From a virus (lineage: Duplodnaviria > Caudoviricetes), in IMG/VR virus record IMGVR_UViG_3300033068_001847, positions 120,210 through 184,209 of that record: a DNA stretch of 64,000 bases. One strand, written 5' to 3'. The position numbers were made by a program, and so were the translations under genes. The notes under the pieces were generated by a model. That model made no database searches, was not told the origin of the DNA, and worked only from the letters and a program-made list of their open reading frames with translations. This document shows positions 27,843-38,248 of this stretch, one piece after another; within the stretch, counting starts at the first letter, position 1; each line of letters begins with the position of its first letter.

Positions 27843-28962
27843 ATTAGATCAATGTTTTAATCAGTTATTATATAAAATAAGAACAGAAGGTTATAATAAA
27901 CAAGATAGGACTGGTACAGGTACACTCTCAATATTCGGACACCTATTAGAACATAATATGAAATCAGGTTTCCCTTTACTCACAAGTAAAAAAATATTTA
28001 CTAAAGGTGTGATTTCAGAAATTCTATGGTTCTTGCGTGGTGAAACTAATATACAATCTTTAGTTAAAGATGGTGTAAATATTTGGGTAGGTGACGTTTA
28101 TAAAAGATACTTATCTTTTGATCATTATGATGAATTAGAAAGTAGATGGGTTTTTAATAAAGCTGGTATCGAAAAAAATGATTTTAATGATCCAAGAACT
28201 TGGTCTCGTCATTATACTGAAAAAGAATTTATTGAACTTATTAAAAATAATGATGAATTCGCTGCTGTATGGGGTGAACTTGGACCAATATATGGTAAAC
28301 AATGGAGAGCTTGGGAGAAAAAAGATGGTACTCACATTGACCAAATTGATAATATAATAAACCTATTAAAATATAATCCAGATTCACGTAGAATTATGGT
28401 GAATGCTTGGAATGTAGGTGAAATTGATGAAGCTGTATTACCACCATGTCACTATGGTTTTCAGTTCTGGTCACGGGAATTAACATTTGCCGAACGATAT
28501 GATATCTATTCAGAAAGAATGAAATATAGATTTGATACCGCAGATTTAAAAACACCCGAAAAATTAGATGCTAGAGGAATTCCTCGTAGAGCAATATCAT
28601 TAGAATGGGAGCAACGAAGTGTAGACACCTTTCTTGGGTTACCTTTTAATATAGCATCATATGGGTTTTTATTACATATTATAGGTAAAATAGTAAATAT
28701 GCAGCCAGAATATTTAAAAGGATCTTTAAAAGATACTCATTTATATCTAAATCATATTGATCAGGCTATAGAACAAGAACAACGAGAGAATATATATGTA
28801 TTACCTGAATTAGAGTTAATAGGAGAATTTGAAAATGTTAATTCTTATTGGATTGACGGTAAATTCGAACTAGATAAATTTTTAAGTAAACTTACTGTAG
28901 ATGATTTCGAAATAGTAGGATATGAATCACATCCAACTATTAAAGCACCTCTATCAAATTAA
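27832..28962 (+). CDS. thyA: Thymidylate synthase
   Basis: DRTGTGT, GPIYGKQWR, SRR, LPPCH, QRSVD, GLPFNIASY and HLYLNH. Confidence 0.97.
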   Translation: MANKLDQCFNQLLYKIRTEGYNKQDRTGTGTLSIFGHLLEHNMKSGFPLLTSKKIFTKGVISEILWFLRGETNIQSLVKDGVNIWVGDVYKRYLSFDHYDELESRWVFNKAGIEKNDFNDPRTWSRHYTEKEFIELIKNNDEFAAVWGELGPIYGKQWRAWEKKDGTHIDQIDNIINLLKYNPDSRRIMVNAWNVGEIDEAVLPPCHYGFQFWSRELTFAERYDIYSERMKYRFDTADLKTPEKLDARGIPRRAISLEWEQRSVDTFLGLPFNIASYGFLLHIIGKIVNMQPEYLKGSLKDTHLYLNHIDQAIEQEQRENIYVLPELELIGEFENVNSYWIDGKFELDKFLSKLTVDDFEIVGYESHPTIKAPLSN

Positions 28963-28966
28963 AACT

Positions 28967-29398
28967 ATGAAAACCAAATCCATCCTAATTGATATGGATG
29001 ACACAATTTGTCATTACAAAAAACATTATCTAAATTATAATGAAAAATATCCTCATATTAAATATCCACAATCGGTTGAAGGGTTTTTTCTGGATTTAGA
29101 ACCTATTAAAGATGCTAAAGAAATAATTAGTTATTTGAATAGAGATTTTGATGTTTGGATAGTTACCAGACCTTCCTCTAAAAATCCATTATGTTATACA
29201 GAGAAACGTATGTGGTTAGAAAAACACTATGGATTAGAAATGTGTGAAAAGTTGTGGTTCGCTCCGAATAAAGCTATGATAGAAGCTGATTATTTAATTG
29301 ATGATTGGCTTTGGAAGGACTTTAAAGGAATTCAATTACAATTTGGTACAGATCCCTATAAAACATGGGATGATATTTATACTTATTTTTATAAATAA
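28967..29398 (+). CDS. 5'(3')-deoxyribonucleotidase (HAD, NT5C family); probable start 28967
   Basis: IDMDD, FFLDLEP, EKRxW and DYLIDD. Confidence 0.85.
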   Translation: MKTKSILIDMDDTICHYKKHYLNYNEKYPHIKYPQSVEGFFLDLEPIKDAKEIISYLNRDFDVWIVTRPSSKNPLCYTEKRMWLEKHYGLEMCEKLWFAPNKAMIEADYLIDDWLWKDFKGIQLQFGTDPYKTWDDIYTYFYK

Positions 29399-29423: not shown

Positions 29424-29431
29424 TATCTTTG
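29424..29431 (+). promoter_or_regulatory. Bacteroidota-type -7 element TATCTTTG heading the NAD/ADP-ribose cluster
   Basis: TAnnTTTG 3 nt before the ATG at 29435. Confidence 0.5.
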
Positions 29432-30370
29432 GTTATGAATTTATATGAAGAAGAATTAATTTTTACTAATCAACCCGATTTAAGTAAAATCCCCGGTGGA
29501 ATAAGTTTAAAACCAAGGATAGATAAATTAAGTAAAACAGATCCTTATAATATTATAATTGGTGATGAAATTAACTTATTAAAAGGTGTGTTAAGCGTTG
29601 AAGATTGTGATAATATAATAGATAATTTTGAACGAGCAGGTAATTATGCGCCTGTAACTATGCAAGGGATGCAAAATGTTACAGATGATAATATTGGATC
29701 AAATAGAATCACTGCCTTTGCACCTACATTATCTGAACTTATATATAAAAATATAGAATTCTTTTTTAAAGGAAATATAAAAACATGTAATCAATTCACA
29801 TCAACTGATTGGTGGCAACCATTTTCTACATATACCCCCGAAATACTTAATTATATACCAGTAACTTGCTCCCCACTATTACGCTTCATGAAATATGTTA
29901 GTGGAGGTAAACACTATCCTCATTATGATGCAGGGTACATTTATGAACAAAATAAAAGTTATAGAACTTTAAAATCATTTGTATTGTATCTAACTACCAA
30001 TGATAGTGGTGCTACTAGATTTTTAGAAGATAATCAAAAAAACTTACCTGTATGGGATAGAGATCATAAAGATTGGATTAGAGAAAGTTATCCTGAAGAA
30101 ATACTTCATAAAATATTACCTGTTAAAGGTGATATGTTAGTATTTGATCATCGTATTTGTCATGATGTTGAAGAGTTTTTAGGAAATGAATCTAAAAGAA
30201 TTATAATTCGTGGAGATATAATTTATAAACAATTTAATATGGAACTACAATACTTATATTTTCATTATAATGAATGGAGAGGATGTAATGATGCAGCAAT
30301 TGAATACATGTTAGGTTTTAATAAAAAATTAGAATATAAACTTAATCCAAATTATAAAAGTGAGAAATAA
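29429..30370 (+). CDS. 2OG-Fe(II) oxygenase (prolyl-4-hydroxylase-like)
   Basis: RFMKY...PHYD, VLYL, GATRF, GDMLVFDH...HD...RIIIRGD. Confidence 0.85.
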   Translation: MVMNLYEEELIFTNQPDLSKIPGGISLKPRIDKLSKTDPYNIIIGDEINLLKGVLSVEDCDNIIDNFERAGNYAPVTMQGMQNVTDDNIGSNRITAFAPTLSELIYKNIEFFFKGNIKTCNQFTSTDWWQPFSTYTPEILNYIPVTCSPLLRFMKYVSGGKHYPHYDAGYIYEQNKSYRTLKSFVLYLTTNDSGATRFLEDNQKNLPVWDRDHKDWIRESYPEEILHKILPVKGDMLVFDHRICHDVEEFLGNESKRIIIRGDIIYKQFNMELQYLYFHYNEWRGCNDAAIEYMLGFNKKLEYKLNPNYKSEK

Positions 30371-31322
30371 TTATAAAGATGTTTTATTTGGCGTTGCAGT
30401 TGGTGATGCACTTGGTGTACCAGTAGAGTTCTCTAAAAGAGAAGATCTTAAAGCTGATCCAGTTACTGGTATGCGTGAATATGGTGTACATCATCAACCT
30501 GCTGGTACTTGGTCTGATGATTCCTCTCTTACTTTTTGTTTGGCTGATACTCTAGTAACTCATGGTTATGATGTAAGAAAAATAGCTAGAAGTTTTTATG
30601 ATTGGTTAAATGATAATTTATGGACACCTCATGGGTTTGTATTTGATATAGGAAATACTACCAGATACGCTATAGATACATATCCCACATGTAAAACATT
30701 AGAGGATTATACTAAAGCTGGAGGTAATACCATTATGGATAATGGTAATGGATCTTTAATGAGAATACTTCCTTTAGTTTTTCATATTAAAGATTTACCG
30801 ATAGAAGAAAGATTTTGTATAACTAAAGATGTTTCTTCCTTAACACATGGTAATGCAATTTCTGTAATTTCATGTTTTTATTACTTAGAATTTGCCAGAT
30901 TAATATTAAAGGGTGAAACAAATGAATTTGTGATTTATGGACTGTTAGAATCAATTTTTTATTTACCTTTCGTAAAGTCTTTTAGAGAAGAACATAAAAT
31001 AGAATTATCAATTTTTGATAATTTTAATGGAACTTTTAATATAGATAGATTCGGTGAAAATTATATTAAAAGCGGAGGTTTTGTGATAGAATCTTTAGAA
31101 GCTAGTATATGGTGTATAATGAATACAGATAATTACAAGGATGCTGTTTTAAAAGCAGTTAATCTTGGAAGTGATACAGATACTACTGCTGCTATTGTTG
31201 GTGGGTTAGCTGGATTATTGTATGGATATGAAACAATACCATCTGAATGGATTGATGTTCTAGCTAGGAAGAAAGATATTGAAAATTTAGCTGACCGATT
31301 AATGGAAAAATATGAGGTCTGA
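30360..31322 (+). CDS. ADP-ribosylglycohydrolase (DraG/ARH family)
   Basis: GDALG, WSDD, GNGSLMR, TH and DTDT motifs. Confidence 0.93.
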   Translation: MRNNYKDVLFGVAVGDALGVPVEFSKREDLKADPVTGMREYGVHHQPAGTWSDDSSLTFCLADTLVTHGYDVRKIARSFYDWLNDNLWTPHGFVFDIGNTTRYAIDTYPTCKTLEDYTKAGGNTIMDNGNGSLMRILPLVFHIKDLPIEERFCITKDVSSLTHGNAISVISCFYYLEFARLILKGETNEFVIYGLLESIFYLPFVKSFREEHKIELSIFDNFNGTFNIDRFGENYIKSGGFVIESLEASIWCIMNTDNYKDAVLKAVNLGSDTDTTAAIVGGLAGLLYGYETIPSEWIDVLARKKDIENLADRLMEKYEV

Positions 31323-31456
31323 GAAGGAGATTCAGGAAAGGATTGAACACATTAAAACTCTATCAAACGGGTATGGTGTTAATGATAAACGTATTAAAGA
31401 ACTCGAATGGGTTTTAAATCTAAAGAATAAAAAAAATAAATCTTATAAAACAGCAG

Positions 31457-32896
31457 ATGGATTGGAAAATAAGTAGGGATTATTTTTATGCTGAGTTATG
31501 TCAGAAATTTGGTGAAGAATATATTTATCAAGCTGGTTATTTTGAAGATAGTTGCGACTATGATTTCAATATAGAAGAATCTTTAGATATAACTTGTACA
31601 CCTCTTGATCATATTCGAAAGAATATTAATAAAACCAACCCTGCAATTATATTATCTACTGGTTCTTTTAATCCTATCCATGATGGTCACGTTCAAATGA
31701 TGCTCAAGGCAAAAGAATGTATTGAAGATAAGGGATATACATGTATTGGTGGTTTTATTGCACCAGACCATGATAATTATATAATGAGTAAATTAGGTGA
31801 TGAAGGTTTACCTATCCACAAAAGAATTAAATTAATAAACAAAGCTATTGAACAATATAATTGGTTAAGAGTTGATCCTTGGTCTGGTGTATTTCATGTA
31901 ACTTCAATAAATTTTACCGATGTAATTTACCGTCTTAAATTATATATTAAAAAATATCTTGGAATTGAAATTCCTATCTTTTTTGTTTGCGGTGGTGATA
32001 ATGCTCAGTTTGCAAAAACATTTGTTTTAAAAGGTAATTGTGTGTTAATAACTAGACCTGAATATGATCAAAAACATTATAATATTTTAAGAGAAATTAT
32101 TTTAAAGAATAAAGAAGCTACTAATTGGGAAAATATATTTACTGGTATTCTTGATAATGATAATTCATCCACAAAGGTTCGAAAGAATTTTCAATACCCT
32201 AAAGATGAAAAAGATTTAATTTTAAGAACACTTGGTGATGTAAAGATTCCATCTCTTTACGATAATTTTATTAATGTTATATCAAAACGTTTTAATTCAG
32301 TAAAGGAAGTTAGGTTATTAAATCAGGTAATTGAATTTGAACAACTGGCTGAAAATAAAAAAATTATTAGTTTAGATCCTTTTATTAAAGGAAATTATAA
32401 TATCGAAATTAGTCGCCTTTATGATACATTTGGGTTAAATAAATTAGGATATGTTAACAGACCAAAGTGTAATTCCTTCAGATTTGAAAAAACCAAAATT
32501 GCGAAAACAGAAGAATACCATCTTTTTGATGATGATATCTGTACTGGTGCAACAATGGAATATGTAGAAAATTTATTAACTAAAGATAATATTAAAATCA
32601 AGGGTAGATTAACTCTTGTTAACGGTATAAATAGCGAGGTATTAGATTTACGTGATTTCATTTATAAAGGTTGTAAAAATTCTGGCTTAGTAATTAAAAC
32701 ACCTACAGGTAAAATAACAAGAGTTCCTTACATTTATCCTTTTGTTTGTCCATATGTTAGAGCTTCAATTCAAGATCCTATGAAATTTTCTTTAGAAATT
32801 TGGGAAGCAAATATTGTATATTACAAAAAAATTAATAACTTTGATATGGTAAAAGAATGTGAATTTTATTATAACCTATTAAGAAAATTTTTATGA
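31457..32896 (+). CDS. Nicotinate/nicotinamide mononucleotide adenylyltransferase fused to a C-terminal type I phosphoribosyltransferase-like domain
   Basis: GSFNPIHDGH (HxGH), VCGGD, SSTKVR; C-terminal LFDDDICTGATM PRPP-binding loop. Confidence 0.8.
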   Translation: MDWKISRDYFYAELCQKFGEEYIYQAGYFEDSCDYDFNIEESLDITCTPLDHIRKNINKTNPAIILSTGSFNPIHDGHVQMMLKAKECIEDKGYTCIGGFIAPDHDNYIMSKLGDEGLPIHKRIKLINKAIEQYNWLRVDPWSGVFHVTSINFTDVIYRLKLYIKKYLGIEIPIFFVCGGDNAQFAKTFVLKGNCVLITRPEYDQKHYNILREIILKNKEATNWENIFTGILDNDNSSTKVRKNFQYPKDEKDLILRTLGDVKIPSLYDNFINVISKRFNSVKEVRLLNQVIEFEQLAENKKIISLDPFIKGNYNIEISRLYDTFGLNKLGYVNRPKCNSFRFEKTKIAKTEEYHLFDDDICTGATMEYVENLLTKDNIKIKGRLTLVNGINSEVLDLRDFIYKGCKNSGLVIKTPTGKITRVPYIYPFVCPYVRASIQDPMKFSLEIWEANIVYYKKINNFDMVKECEFYYNLLRKFL

Positions 32897-34182
32897 TTAA
32901 AAGATCATATACTGAAGTACTCAAAAGGATGATTGTTTTAATTCCTGAAACAGAAGTTGAATTAATAAAAGCTCTGGAAGCTGACTTAGAAGATGGGTTT
33001 TATAAAGCACCAGAAGAAACAGTTCAATGGTGGGCAACATCAGAAACGCTAGAATTATATATTCCATTACCAAAAGAAGATTGGCACTTTGAAATATTAA
33101 GTATTTACACAAATAAATCAATTGAAGAGATTAAAAAAGTATTTTTTACATGAAAATCGAAAAACCGAAACTACTTAAAAGCTATGAATGTTGGATTGAA
33201 AGAGGTGACGGAAATAAGTTTGTAACTACTCATATAGGAACATCGGCATCACAAGCCAGATATCAATTTTATATAGAATTAGATTGTAGTGAAAGTTATA
33301 GTAGAATGTTCAGACTCATAAGGAGTAAGTGTATAGGAACTATGAAAATAGAAAACCATTTCGGTAATCCTGATACATTTGAAAGAATGATTAATAGTAG
33401 AAATATTCCGTTCGCCCGTTTAGGAATGGTTATAGATGTGGATGGTAAAAAGGGTTGGATTGTTGGATCTAATAGTTCTATGAATTTAGATGTAATATTT
33501 GAAGGGACTACTTATTCTTCAAATTGCCATCCAACTTGGCAGACAACATATTACAATTCCGATGGTACTATAGTTAAAAATTTTAAAGAACCAAAAAAAG
33601 AATATAAAATCCAAGTACTCGACCCTAATTACGATTATCCTTTTTAATTATGAATCAAAGTCAGAAAATTAATACTAATTATAAAAATGGTGAATTAGTG
33701 AAATGTTTATTATATGATAAAAATAATCCAGAAAAATATCCTGAGTTATTTGAAATTCAAAAATATAATAAAGATTTCGGTACAGTAGAGTACCGTGATA
33801 ATAAAAAATATGATAGTATTGGTATTGCGTATATTCGTAAAGCTAATCTACTGGAGAAATTTGTTTATTATGTTAAGGATTTAAAAAACATGAATTAATG
33901 AAAAAAGTTATAACTTTAACCTTCGATGCTGATCTTTTAAAAGGATATTCCGAAGTATATACCAAGCATGGTGTTGTTAATTCAGATGTAGTAAATTGTG
34001 CGGGTTGGGTTGTAGATAATTTTAGTTGGTCAATTGAACAATCCTATCCAGAAACATCTCCAAGAGGAATAGAAGCTACTAAACTGAGATCTCTTTTATA
34101 TCAGCAAATTATAGATCAATGTACACCTCAACAACTCAGAGATACTAAACGCTTACGTAAATACATGGAGCATGAATATTGA
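32893..34182 (+). CDS. Run of four small hypothetical ORFs (32893-33153, 33150-33647, 33650-33898, 33898-34182)
   Basis: Overlapping start/stop packing. Confidence 0.5.
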
Positions 34183-35083
34183 ATATTATTTAAAAAGTTA
34201 TCGGGAGAAACGTGGATTTAACGTTGAAAATTATTTAGAGAAAAAGATTATAGCAATTAATGATTTTTTTTCTAAAAATAATTTAGATTCTGCCGTAATT
34301 GGAATATCAGGAGGTGTAGATAGTGCATTAGTTCTTTATTTATTAAAAAGAGCTTCTGAAGAACATAACTCACCAATCAGACAAATTATGCCGATATCTA
34401 TTCCTATACGTAATGTATCAGGTGTAACATCCCAAAATAAAGCTTCATTTTACGCTGACTTAGTGATGGAAAGTGCAGGATATACTTATTATGAAGTACC
34501 ATTGGAAGAAGCTTATAACTCAATTATAAAATCATCATGTGATATCCATGCTAATGAAAATGATGCATGGGTTAAAGGTCAGATGGCTTCTGTATTAAGA
34601 ACACCAGTATTATATTTTCATGCAGCTATATTACAGGGATCAGGATATAAGTCAATAGTTGTAGGGACAACAAATAGAGATGAAGGTGCTTATATAGGTT
34701 TTTTTGGTAAAGCATCAGATGCAATGGTTGATTTACAACCCATAGCTGATCTACATAAATCAGAAGTTTATCAATTAGCTAAACATTTAGGTGTCCCTGA
34801 AAGAATTATTAATAGAAAACCTCAAGGAGATGTTTGGGATCGTAGAAATGATGAAGAAATGATAGGAGCTTCATATGATATGATAGAGTTATTTTTATTA
34901 ATGGAAGATATAGAACCATTTCAGGATTTTTTTTTAATAGATGAAAATGAAAGAAATTTGTTTGATAATTCTTTCAATGCAATCATGGAACTTCACTATA
35001 TAAATAAACATAAATACGAAGTAGGTAATCCAGCACATTTTATTGATGTGATGCAACGTACCGTAAAAGGAGGATGGAAATAA
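34172..35083 (+). CDS. nadE: NH3-dependent NAD+ synthetase
   Basis: GISGGVDS, GTTNRDE, GFFGKxxD, PIADLHKSEV and DEE. Confidence 0.92.
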   Translation: MNIEYYLKSYREKRGFNVENYLEKKIIAINDFFSKNNLDSAVIGISGGVDSALVLYLLKRASEEHNSPIRQIMPISIPIRNVSGVTSQNKASFYADLVMESAGYTYYEVPLEEAYNSIIKSSCDIHANENDAWVKGQMASVLRTPVLYFHAAILQGSGYKSIVVGTTNRDEGAYIGFFGKASDAMVDLQPIADLHKSEVYQLAKHLGVPERIINRKPQGDVWDRRNDEEMIGASYDMIELFLLMEDIEPFQDFFLIDENERNLFDNSFNAIMELHYINKHKYEVGNPAHFIDVMQRTVKGGWK

Positions 35084-35640: not shown

Positions 35641-36423
35641 ATGGAAAATAAAATAGGGATATATCAAATTATTAATGTTTTAAATAATGATCGTTACATT
35701 GGTAGTTCAAAAAATATAACAAAAAGATTTTATGAACATAAAAGAACACTTGATTTAAATAAACACCATTCTACTATATTACAACGAGCTTGGAATAAAT
35801 ATGGTAAAGATAAATTTCGTTTTGAATATATAGTAGAATGTAACGTTCAGGATTTAATTCTTTTAGAAGATCATTATCTTAAGTTATATAAACCTAAATA
35901 TAATATTTTTAAAAATGCAACTTCTTCACGTCTTGGAATACCACATACAAAAGAAACCAAATTAAAAATCAGTCAAGCTAATAAAGGAAAGAAATTATCG
36001 CAAGAACATAAAATTAAATTTACCAGAAAAGGAATTAAAGTTTCAACTTATACGAAAAAGCTAATTAGCGATAAAAATACTGGTAAAAAACGGACTGAAG
36101 AAGTAAAACAGAAATTAAGTCAAATTAGAAAAAAAGAAGCTGAATCTCCTTTCGTTTTAAAACGACTAAAAGAAATTGGTGCGAAAGGACGTGAAAATCG
36201 AGTATATAAAACAGGTTGGACAGTATCTGAAGAAACGAGGGAAAAAATGATATTAAGTCGATATAAAATTGCGGTAGTATCGTTTGATTTGAATTATAAA
36301 GAACTAGATACTTTTTCTTCTGTAAAAGAAGCTGCTTTACATTATGGAATTGATGCAAATGGTATAAGAAGGAAATTAGATAAAGATAAAACATATAAAA
36401 ACATGATATGGAAGAAGAAATAA
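35641..36423 (+). mobile_element. GIY-YIG homing endonuclease with NUMOD3-type repeats and NUMOD1-like C-terminus
   Basis: GIYQI...YIGSS...R...H...LQRAWNKYG; HTKETKLKIS repeats; TATTTAT at 35630-35636. Confidence 0.92.
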
Positions 36424-36809
36424 ATACCAAACTTGGTCTCATTGTTGCCGTAAATAACTTCGGATATATCGGGTTGGATGGTAAAATTCCTTGGTATTGT
36501 AGAGAAGATCTTAAACATTTTAAAGCTCTTACATTGAACCAAAGTTTGATGGTAGGTAGAACAACCTTCGAACAGTTACCACCTCTTAGAGATCGGGAAA
36601 TCATCGTTGTTGGTCAAGGATATCATACACTAGATGAAGCTCTAGCTTTAAAACCAGATTGGGTGATAGGTGGGGCTAAATTATATACGTCAACAATACA
36701 TTTATGTGATGAAATTCATGTCAGTAGAATTAATAATGATCTAATTGGAGATACAATATTTACGATCCCCGAAGATTATAAAGGTAAAATATTTGAATAT
36801 AAATTTTAA
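36408..36809 (+). CDS. folA: Dihydrofolate reductase
   Basis: LIVAV...IG..GKIPW...DLKHFK...MVGRTTF...PL..R...IGGAKLY...GDT.F. Confidence 0.92.
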   Translation: MEEEINTKLGLIVAVNNFGYIGLDGKIPWYCREDLKHFKALTLNQSLMVGRTTFEQLPPLRDREIIVVGQGYHTLDEALALKPDWVIGGAKLYTSTIHLCDEIHVSRINNDLIGDTIFTIPEDYKGKIFEYKF

Positions 36810-36812
36810 GTT

Positions 36813-37514
36813 ATGAGTCCGTTTGAAAAAGGATTAATTGAAAATAGTAATATCATTAACGCTTATCATTTTGGTAGCAGAGTGTACGGTAGTGATACCA
36901 TAAATTCAGATTATGATTATGTATTAGTAGTTGATGAATTCTTTGTTGCACCTGATAAGAATATTTGTGTGTATACAATACACCAATTTCAAACTCTTTT
37001 AAATAATTGTGATATTCAAATATTGGAATGTTTTTTTATACCGAATAAATTCATTGTTAAAGAAAAACACAGATTTTGTTTGAATTTAGATAAACAAAAA
37101 CTTAGAACAAGTATCTCAACTATTGCTTCAAACAGCTATGTCAAGGGGAAAAAAAAGGTCACGGTTATGAATGACTATGATTTACATGCTGGATTGAAAT
37201 CCGTATTTCATTCTTTACGGATATTAAACTTTGGTATTCAAATCGCTGAACACGGTAAAATTATAGATTATGGTGCAATGAATTATGTACTTTGGGATCT
37301 TTTTAAATTATCTGAACAATACCAAACAGTAGAGTTATGGGAAGTTATTAATACGAAATACAAATCAGTTTTCAACCAATTAAGCAGTTTGTTCAAGCAG
37401 CTATGTCCAAAAGACTTAACAGAAAAAAATAAGAAACTTAATTTAATTAAGATTCTCAAAAAATATAATGTTGAAAATGTTGATTTAGTGGATGAGTTAT
37501 TAACTGTATTGTAA
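36813..37514 (+). CDS. Pol-beta-family nucleotidyltransferase with helical C-terminal domain
   Basis: FGSRVYG...SDYDY; KSVFHSLR. Confidence 0.75.
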   Translation: MSPFEKGLIENSNIINAYHFGSRVYGSDTINSDYDYVLVVDEFFVAPDKNICVYTIHQFQTLLNNCDIQILECFFIPNKFIVKEKHRFCLNLDKQKLRTSISTIASNSYVKGKKKVTVMNDYDLHAGLKSVFHSLRILNFGIQIAEHGKIIDYGAMNYVLWDLFKLSEQYQTVELWEVINTKYKSVFNQLSSLFKQLCPKDLTEKNKKLNLIKILKKYNVENVDLVDELLTVL

Positions 37515-38248
37515 TGAAATTTATAATTGAAACCAAAAAAGGTGAAGTAGTTCATGACTTTTCATTTACGTTGATTCAACGAATTAATGCTCATAACGAT
37601 TGGTTACTTAATCAATCTGACTTAATTAAATATAAGTTAACTGACGGTGAAATGTTACCTGATTTCATACCTGTAGGATCAGTAGATTTTGTAGTGAAGT
37701 ATATTCGGAAATATTATGGTATAACACCAGAACCTGTAAACATTCCTGATGTATTAAATCAGGATAGATTTTTAGAGAGAAAAGTCTATATAGATAAATT
37801 TACTAATGTACTATCAACTACCTCACCATTATTTATAAAAAGTATTAATAAAATTAAAGGCTTTACTGGATTTGTTAGTAAAGTATCTCTAATGGATATT
37901 CCCTCAGAAAGTTTTCTGTGTTCTGAAGTAATAGATATTGATTCTGAGTGGAGAGGGTTTGTCCATAAAAATGAGTTAATTGATATTAAAAATTATTCTG
38001 GTGATCCATTTATATTTCCCAATGTAGATACAGTAAAGGAGATGGTGAAGGAATATGTAAATGCTCCAGTAGCATATACTATTGATGTAGCTATTAATAG
38101 TAAAACAGGTAATACTGTTCTTATTGAATGTCATGATTTCTTTTCATGCGGTTTATATGGTTTTGATTATCACAAATATCCTTGGATGTTATCACAATGG
38201 TATTATGAATTTTTGAGGAAAAACAAACAAAATATATTGCAAATATAA
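37514..38248 (+). CDS. ATP-grasp protein (R2K/DUF4343-like)
   Basis: PVGSVDF, FIKS...K.F.G, SEWRGFV, AYTIDV...LIECH...GLYG. Confidence 0.8.
   Translation: MKFIIETKKGEVVHDFSFTLIQRINAHNDWLLNQSDLIKYKLTDGEMLPDFIPVGSVDFVVKYIRKYYGITPEPVNIPDVLNQDRFLERKVYIDKFTNVLSTTSPLFIKSINKIKGFTGFVSKVSLMDIPSESFLCSEVIDIDSEWRGFVHKNELIDIKNYSGDPFIFPNVDTVKEMVKEYVNAPVAYTIDVAINSKTGNTVLIECHDFFSCGLYGFDYHKYPWMLSQWYYEFLRKNKQNILQI

Follow-up and report, generated by a model that had tools for sequence, protein, structure and literature searches.

The stretch of viral DNA described here, referred to as the window, comprises the last 64 kb of a 184,209-bp IMG/VR virus record (IMGVR_UViG_3300033068_001847). The record has a CheckV completeness of ~53% and a G+C content of ~28%, and it is a fragment of a jumbo phage representing about half of the genome. 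In the window, a gene cluster encodes a P4H-like Fe(II)/2-oxoglutarate (2OG) oxygenase, an ADP-ribosylglycohydrolase (ARH), a fusion of an NMNAT domain with a phosphoribosyltransferase (PRTase)-like domain, and a paralogue of the nicotinamide adenine dinucleotide (NAD) synthetase NadE. These four products had been listed in an initial annotation of the sequence, and all of them are present where they had been placed, co-oriented on the + strand (Table 1). The core of the module consists of NadE, the P4H-like 2OG oxygenase and the NMNAT-PRTase-like fusion. That these three form one conserved, NAD-linked unit was borne out by recurrent adjacency, operons, four-domain fusions and a neighbouring NrtR regulator gene. 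We lean towards the view that the cluster represents one instance of a module, widespread and uncharacterised, by which NAD, or a dinucleotide closely resembling it, is made from a free base, phosphoribosyl pyrophosphate (PRPP) and ATP.

Table 1. Positions in the window of the cluster genes, the two halves of the fusion gene and associated features
Feature	Position	Strand	Basis
P4H-like Fe(II)/2OG oxygenase, core member	29429..30370	+	PF13640
DraG/Tri1-like ARH, itself inserted in the module in this lineage only	30360..31322	+	PF03747
Fusion, N-terminal half: eukaryote-type nicotinamide/nicotinic acid mononucleotide (NMN/NaMN) adenylyltransferase domain	31457..32203	+	motifs, TIGR00482, fold
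Fusion, C-terminal half: divergent type I PRTase-like domain, PRPP loop FDDDICTGAT	32204..32896	+	profile, VIA
Four small open reading frames (ORFs; 86, 165, 82, 94 aa) between fusion gene and nadE	32893..34182	+	no Pfam family
NadE paralogue (NH3-type NAD synthetase family), core member	34172..35083	+	PF02540, TIGR00552
Pol-beta-type nucleotidyltransferase, loose module neighbour	36813..37514	+	weak Polbeta and NTP_transf_2 matches

Recurrence of the module in phages and bacteria

The phage comparison covered 14 loci, the window included, and records that are at least 90% complete were treated as near-complete (n=5). Beside the fusion gene, 9 of the 14 loci have NadE and 8 have a gene closely homologous to that of the oxygenase; the other neighbours were unrelated. 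Both NadE and the oxygenase are present in all five near-complete records that carry the fusion. Bacterial loci were located with a Leptospira oxygenase as the query. NadE, the oxygenase and the fusion form an overlapping three-gene operon in Leptospira weilii, Leptospira sarikeiensis and metagenome-assembled genomes (MAGs) of Myxococcota, and a Polyangiales MAG has one ORF that encodes both NadE and the oxygenase.

The association goes as far as fusion into one polypeptide. Among 229 representative proteins, the NMNAT domain followed by the C-terminal PRTase-like domain (C-domain) is the prevailing architecture (188 proteins), and the C-domain stands alone in 22. NadE, oxygenase, NMNAT and C-domain are joined in this order in 14 proteins of 1,048-1,208 aa. 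Three proteins combine the oxygenase with NMNAT and the C-domain, and NadE-NMNAT-C and NMNAT-NMNAT-C occur once each. Four-domain ORFs of 1,127 and 1,313 aa were also found in two Myxococcota genomes. These single-protein fusions speak strongly for a common pathway of the four domains. At 90% identity, full-length homologues of the fusion protein fall into 93 clusters, and the C-domain profile matches 1,308 representative proteins at E <= 0.001.

The distribution in bacteria is sporadic, with the module present in 1 of 22 Leptospira species genomes and in 5 of 301 sampled Myxococcota. In the tree of fusion proteins, the Leptospira pair lies inside the phage clade that holds the window sequence (support 99/95), and the Myxococcota sequences are found in two other places. 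Because of this nesting and the two separate placements, the tree indicates that the cassette has moved between phages and bacteria.

Against GenBank phages, neither megablast with the region nor tblastn with the fusion protein gave a match, and the oxygenase is the only product for which relatives in cultured phages were found. Versions of the module are carried by the cultured Acinetobacter phage ME3 and Xanthomonas phages X1 and BUDD, and possibly by Variovorax phage V45v66, as judged from the oxygenase homologue alone. In ME3, the oxygenase is accompanied by a stand-alone C-domain protein (BFVD match E 1e-9), whose gene overlaps NadE, and by a macro-domain gene.

Enzymes of the module and their oxidative partner

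The fusion protein has a length of 479 aa (31457-32896), of which residues ~60-250 form the NMNAT domain. This domain matches TIGR00482 (E 2.3e-17) and human NMNAT3 (1nup; E 6.9e-9). The TIGR00482 score of 63.7 bits lies below the equivalog cut-off of 112.45 and the Pfam superfamily threshold is passed (35.1 versus 21), so the domain is best classed on its scores as a divergent family member. The NMNAT signature motifs GSFNPIHDGH and NSSTKVRK (SSTxxR) are both present, and across 41 homologues no variation is seen at H75, H78 and S238 and next to none at R242. The same 41 homologues were used to build an AF2 model of the fusion protein, with a predicted local distance difference test (pLDDT) score of 92.7. 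Foldseek matched the NMNAT domain of this model to 9iw1 (E 4e-9) and 1nus (E 8e-9), and VIA recovered the NMNAT fold with Z 19.5 and a root-mean-square deviation (rmsd) of 2.6 over 196 residues.

Some variants of the fusion protein were observed. P0228 and P0080 (705 aa) have an additional C-terminal GNAT acetyltransferase domain. In the complete 391-kb record IMGVR_UViG_3300014205_000001 (L003:10751-10753), the NMNAT and PRTase-like halves are in-frame with one TAA in the linker, which could represent a natural split, read-through or an error.

At the C-terminus of the fusion, the type I PRTase loop LFDDDICTGAT that had been pointed out in the initial annotation was found, with an intact PRPP loop in a type I PRTase-like domain. 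The loop (HLFDDDICTGAT) consists of a hydrophobic strand, two acidic residues and TG-x-T; D359, D360 and G364 do not vary and T366 hardly does. R320, R422 and R435 are likewise invariant or nearly so, and the domain keeps further invariant Arg, Asp and aromatic residues behind the PRPP loop. When the C-domain profile was compared with the PDB, all 48 matches were PRTase-fold chains of type I only, with APRT as the best (E 2.8e-4). The matches include APRT, HGPRT, ComF, PRPP synthetase, PyrR and PurR, and all of them are aligned at the PRPP loop. The VIA top lists for the whole model and for the isolated C-domain also consist almost entirely of type I PRTases (4z1o: Z 7.6, rmsd 5.1, 136 residues aligned). 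The C-terminal ~230 residues gave no Pfam match, and PF00156 matches weakly in 3 of 13 relatives (best E 0.0035). From the profile and the model it was concluded that the C-terminal domain is most probably a strongly diverged type I PRTase-like domain. We infer, with a slight lean in its favour, that it is a catalytic PRTase, for which nicotinate would be the simplest choice of base. Substitution for quinolinate PRTase was also considered; NadC is kept in all five bacterial carriers checked, as is the long housekeeping NadE, so gene loss gives this idea no support.

The NadE of the module (303 aa) matches PF02540 (E 3.4e-35) and scores 124 bits with TIGR00552, for which the cut-off is 63.65. 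It contains the PP-loop GISGGVDSA and no glutaminase (CN-hydrolase) domain, PF02540 alone spanning the protein. A hidden Markov model (HMM) of the module NadE scores the module copies at 113-265 bits, compared with ~55 bits for the PncB-linked NadE of the related phage records G010 and G011. Judging from these scores, the module NadE is a distinct subfamily that is kept beside a housekeeping or PncB-linked NadE. As this subfamily is distinct and is always paired with an oxidase, the use of free ammonia on nicotinic acid adenine dinucleotide (NaAD) by the module NadE appears doubtful. The best solved relatives are short NadEs, with 2e18 followed by 3fiu, which we take to be the Francisella NMN synthetase. 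In the Francisella route, NadE acts as an NMN synthetase ahead of NadM. The module NadE belongs to the same short NadE group, with 3fiu as its second-best solved relative, so that amidation at the mononucleotide level is possible in the module as well. Neither an oxidase partner nor a PRTase-like fusion, both of which the module has, belongs to the Francisella route.

The oxygenase scores 31.9 bits with PF13640 (cut-off 27). In its family H163-x-D165, H239/H243 and R259 are invariant and R255 is nearly so, and R255/R259 would bind the C5 carboxylate of 2OG. Besides the iron triad and the distal Arg, the family has five further invariant arginines, which suggests that the substrate is anionic and probably phosphorylated. 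The nearest solved relatives are prolyl hydroxylases, with a weak match (E 0.008, PDB profile), and the Atlas neighbours are unnamed 2OG proteins. The role of the oxygenase had been left unexplained in the initial annotation. It now emerges as an obligate partner of the module, which is fused to NadE in some bacteria and is replaced elsewhere by a RaSEA-like radical S-adenosylmethionine (radical-SAM) enzyme. A role as a substitute for PncA was ruled out on chemistry, as we know of no oxidative route that hydrolyses a primary amide.

The replacement was observed in the related phage record G006, in which no oxygenase homologue was found. Between NadE and the fusion gene, and overlapping the end of NadE, this phage has a 366-aa ORF with a Cx4Cx2C motif. 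The product matches TIGR01210 (RaSEA) with E 4.7e-49, and its structural matches in the Atlas are RaSEA clusters (TM 0.87-0.89). Close homologues of this protein form 70 clusters. The loci were found by alignment-based scans; a single-protein query matched only itself. In 24 of 29 viral and metagenomic loci, NadE and/or the NMNAT-C fusion lies directly beside the close RaSEA-like gene, and the RaSEA-like gene occurs together with the 2OG oxygenase in only one of the 29. Distant members of the RaSEA family have module genes in none of 14 loci. Since the oxygenase swaps with a RaSEA-like radical-SAM enzyme that adjoins the module, a step of oxidative or radical nature, linked to NadE, is required by the module. 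The single locus in which a RaSEA-like gene and a 2OG oxygenase were seen beside NMNAT-C and NadE (L051:2856-8338) may be a facultative version of the module.

NAD context, known systems and neighbouring genes

Several gene neighbourhoods connect the module to NAD metabolism. In L. weilii, an NrtR regulator with Nudix and NrtR winged-helix domains is encoded directly upstream of the operon. The Myxococcota genome G318 has a row of genes for NAMPT, an NMNAT-domain protein, Nudix, NadE, the oxygenase and the fusion. In Xanthomonas phage X1, genes for an NMNAT-like protein, the oxygenase and NadE lie upstream of, and a few genes away from, an annotated NMNAT and NAMPT.

The absence of a NAMPT gene that had been noted for the window extends to the whole 184-kb record, itself ~53% complete: NAMPT/NAPRT (PF04095), PRS (PF13793), PF00156, Nudix and PnuC (PF04973) were all searched for across it and gave no match. 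The fusion is the sole NMNAT-type gene in the record. Among related phages, a PF04095 gene is present in 7 of 13 records. NAMPT-type genes were found in G002, G004, G005 and G007, with a separate NMNAT-domain protein nearby in G002 and G007. G003 has PRS-like and NAMPT-like genes of the NARP1 kind alongside the module, and G010 and G011 have a PncA-like gene, PncB and a second NadE beside it. No PF04095 gene was found in the 97%-complete G009, the complete ME3 genome or two Leptospira genomes, and in these the module does occur on its own. As related phages often carry NAMPT-, NARP1- or PncA/PncB-type genes in addition, the module is not a replacement for NAMPT-type enzymes.

Two observations on such additional genes may be recorded. 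The row in G003 (L018:3052-6698) encodes a PRTase_3 (ComF-like) protein, a PRS-like protein and a 612-aa NAMPT-like protein, and resembles a NARP1-type set that includes an additional PRTase. In each of two jumbo phages and in one Myxococcota genome, NAMPT has as its neighbour a second and distinct NMNAT-containing protein of ~407-463 aa, with ~230 unannotated N-terminal residues (L015:2111-3502, L017:2948-4237, L031:5536-6759).

The set is absent from NARP1, NARP2 and NARP3 as described, in agreement with the initial annotation. The module is not described in the NARP1-3 papers, in the jumbo-phage NAD survey or in comparative surveys of jumbo phages and of viral NAD/ADP-ribose systems. The closest established route is the Preiss-Handler pathway (PncB, NadD and NadE), for which pncB-nadD-nadE clusters have been reported in jumbo phages (PMC11662467). 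Both these clusters and the module are borne by jumbo phages and combine a NadD/NMNAT-superfamily adenylyltransferase with an NH3-type NadE, a combination that implies a deamidated intermediate. Where PncB would be expected, however, the module has a type I PRTase-like domain that is not homologous to it and is fused to the adenylyltransferase. The NadE of the module constitutes a subfamily of its own, and a 2OG oxygenase or a RaSEA-like radical-SAM enzyme always accompanies it or is fused to it. Moreover, G010 and G011 have the canonical PncA/PncB/NadE set in addition to the module.

NARP2, like NadV and NatV of vibriophage KVP40 (NAMPT and NMNAT-Nudix), shares with the module a bifunctional phage NMNAT fusion for NAD+ supply, and a NARP2-like NAMPT/NMNAT/Nudix set adjoins the module in one Myxococcota genome and lies near it in Xanthomonas phage X1. 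The fusion partner in the module is PRTase-like and not Nudix, and the incomplete window record gave no NAMPT. NadE and the oxidase are also integral to the module, whereas the amidated NAMPT route needs neither. With NARP1 (Adps and Namat) and NARP3 (PnuC and NadR), the module presumably shares the purpose of rebuilding NAD+ in infected cells, but no PRS-like Adps, NAMPT-like Namat or PnuC was found in the incomplete record, in which NadR was not searched for.

A parallel for the oxygenase-free version of the module is the ArcS-RaSEA pair of archaeosine synthesis, in which a nitrogen-installing enzyme also has an obligatory radical-SAM partner of the TIGR01210 family (PMC11298593). RaSEA strips the lysine skeleton from the adduct formed by ArcS on preQ0, and the lysine nitrogen stays behind as an amidine (PMC11298593). 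ArcS of T. acidophilum, of M. acetivorans and of T. kodakarensis makes no use of NH4+, Asn or Gln (PMC11298593). In the module, by contrast, the partner is the PP-loop enzyme NadE and not the TGT-like ArcS, and the substrate would be a nucleotide carboxylate instead of a tRNA nitrile, so that the likeness in mechanism is a proposed one. The window phage further differs in having a 2OG oxygenase in place of the radical-SAM enzyme.

The ARH gene does not belong to the conserved core. Its product matches PF03747 (E 1.9e-65, 221.8 bits, positions 2-287 of 287), and the motifs SDDS and DTDT can be seen in it. Among solved relatives, Lmo0067 (8za7, E 4e-76) and Tri1 (6dre, E 2e-41) come out best, and the equivalog cut-offs for Tri1 and DraG are not reached. 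An ARH gene is present somewhere in 9 of the 14 phage records, including all five near-complete ones, and it adjoins the module only in the window phage. Membership of the ARH in the pathway, as initially proposed, was dropped, since conserved adjacency was not found in the related phage loci. The protein is best read as a separate Arg-ADP-ribose hydrolase, an accessory that would remove ADP-ribose from modified targets.

The cluster is part of a block of + strand genes for nucleotide metabolism, in which it is preceded by genes for a UvrD-like helicase, ThyA and an NT5C-like nucleotidase, and followed by genes for a GIY-YIG homing endonuclease, DHFR, a Pol-beta-type nucleotidyltransferase and an R2K ATP-grasp protein. 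The NT5C-like 5'-nucleotidase gene (28922-29398) overlaps the end of ThyA and lies directly upstream of the cluster, an adjacency that is not kept in other loci. Downstream, the GIY-YIG/NUMOD homing endonuclease gene (35641-36423) directly precedes the short DHFR gene (36408-36809) and overlaps its start. The R2K-clade ATP-grasp protein follows the Pol-beta-type nucleotidyltransferase (together 36813-38248), and homologues of the latter occur near the fusion gene in 5 of the 14 phage loci. Of the four small ORFs that precede nadE within the cluster, two have matches to PHROGs of unknown function, and no counterparts of the four were found in related phage loci. A host-type promoter had also been proposed for the cluster and found no support, as the 97 sigma-70-like sites, against 105 +/- 9 in shuffles, are at chance level.

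Proposed pathway and alternative readings

It is quite probable that the module makes NAD or a near analogue. In the proposed pathway, the C-terminal type I PRTase-like domain would first convert a pyridine carboxylate, in the simplest case nicotinate, and PRPP to a mononucleotide. This would then be adenylylated to a deamido-dinucleotide by the fused eukaryote-type NMNAT domain, whose family membership is clear and whose substrate is predicted. In the last step, the dedicated NadE paralogue and its obligatory oxidase would together turn the carboxylate into a carboxamide. For this step, it is proposed that the nicotinate carboxylate, once adenylated by NadE, is joined by this enzyme not to free ammonia but to an amine donor, for example an amino acid. 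The carbon next to the donor nitrogen would subsequently be hydroxylated or cleaved by the 2OG oxygenase, or in other versions by the RaSEA-like enzyme, by which the donor skeleton would be released as an aldehyde and the primary amide would remain. The use of an amine donor followed by oxidative dealkylation is drawn from the analogy with ArcS-RaSEA and is put forward tentatively. Such a two-step amidation would account for the obligatory pairing and fusion of NadE and the oxidase and for the aerobic and anaerobic alternatives, as well as for the missing glutaminase domain and the extra NadE beside the housekeeping one. In the phage, the module would keep NAD+ available for replication, also when NADase defences of the host deplete it, and it would work alongside any NAMPT-type route encoded in the missing half of the genome. 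An anti-defence role may be envisaged. In its full form, the proposal of a type I PRTase acting on a pyridine carboxylate and an amidation by NadE, an amine and an oxidase (RaSEA-like in anaerobic versions), exchanged by jumbo phages and scattered bacteria and sustaining phage NAD+, remains speculative and is judged less likely than not.

A number of points weigh against this proposal. The nicotinate, nicotinamide and quinolinate PRTases that are known are of type II, so a type I PRTase acting on a pyridine would, to our knowledge, be unprecedented. The VIA Z-scores for the C-domain are only 6-7.6, a range that according to the tool is common for unrelated folds, and Foldseek of the isolated C-domain against the PDB gave nothing at E <= 0.001, only flavodoxin-like and PRTase noise. 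The PF00156 threshold was not reached, with no match in the window protein or in the 184-kb record. The base of the PRTase-like domain may be neither nicotinate nor nicotinamide, because many carriers have NAMPT-type or PncA/PncB genes and the bacterial carriers keep NadC and the long NadE. The oxidase could act at another step. Its RaSEA-like counterpart scores 167 bits, under the equivalog cut-off of 212, and for this reason is classed by sequence as a RaSEA paralogue; common membership of the RaSEA family is not enough to define the reaction. In G004 (80% complete), the fusion and the oxygenase are also present and no NadE was found.

The first alternative is an ordinary Preiss-Handler tail, which is considered rather unlikely. 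Here, the C-domain would be a non-catalytic PRPP or nucleotide sensor on a NadD/NMNAT enzyme, the mononucleotide would be supplied by a type II PRTase of the host or phage, NadE would use ammonia, and the oxygenase would regulate or modify a protein. Type I PRTase folds have indeed been reused as regulators, for example in PyrR and PurR, which are both among the profile matches, but the C-domain retains an intact acidic PRPP loop and many invariant Arg, Asp and aromatic residues, and its stand-alone gene adjoins NadE in ME3. The supply of a mononucleotide is plausible for most of the related near-complete phages, which have NAMPT- or PncB-type genes, and pncB-nadD-nadE clusters of jumbo phages are already on record (PMC11662467). 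In G009, ME3 and the two Leptospira genomes, however, there is no PF04095 enzyme to supply it. The weak similarity of the oxygenase to protein prolyl hydroxylases would fit a protein substrate, yet systematic exchange with a RaSEA-like radical-SAM enzyme would not be expected of a regulatory protein hydroxylase, nor would a position between NadE and NMNAT in fusion proteins.

A tailored NAD-like dinucleotide, or a third, unusual base, is also judged unlikely. The PRTase-like domain would take a non-canonical heterocycle, and the oxidase would make or modify the group that NadE amidates. A side chain could, for example, be oxidised in steps until a carboxylate is reached, as is done by thymine hydroxylase, and the product could, for instance, be an NAD analogue that resists or inhibits NADases. 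Type I PRTases normally use purine or pyrimidine-like bases and not pyridines, and complete nicotinamide and nicotinate routes coexist with the module in the same genomes. The distinct NadE subfamily kept by the module and the many invariant arginines in the oxygenase pocket, which fit a phosphorylated substrate, are in line with it as well. On the other hand, control by NrtR and the adjoining NAMPT and Nudix genes are indicative of ordinary NAD homeostasis, the NadE scores above the curated NAD synthetase threshold, and no candidate base or product is known.

Nothing was found in support of the earlier suggestion that the PRTase-like domain recycles ADP-ribose, and a NARP1-like route in which it couples nicotinamide or nicotinate to activated ADP-ribose, with the ARH feeding in free ADP-ribose, is very improbable: genes for ADP-ribose processing do accompany the module (the ARH here, a macro domain in ME3, Nudix/NrtR in bacteria) and NARP1 Adps has the PRPP-synthetase (type I PRTase-like) fold, but the incomplete 184-kb record has no PRS-like kinase to activate ADP-ribose, the single C-domain lacks a second PRS domain, the ARH adjacency is not conserved, and the route from ADP-ribose and nicotinamide needs neither NMNAT nor NadE, which are both invariant partners.

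NAD biosynthesis is regarded as fully mapped, and NAD depletion is a main battlefield between bacteria and phages. The cassette discussed here is undescribed, occurs in well over a thousand protein clusters, exists as single enzymes of 1,048-1,313 aa in some bacteria and is linked to NrtR. The module can be tested, as versions of it are carried by cultured phages and by genome-sequenced Leptospira strains, and the four-domain proteins offer a one-pot system. If the proposed pathway is true, it would represent a new class of PRTases for pyridines and a new, ammonia-independent logic for the formation of the nicotinamide amide, and it would give phages a further route to sustain NAD+ besides NARP1-3.

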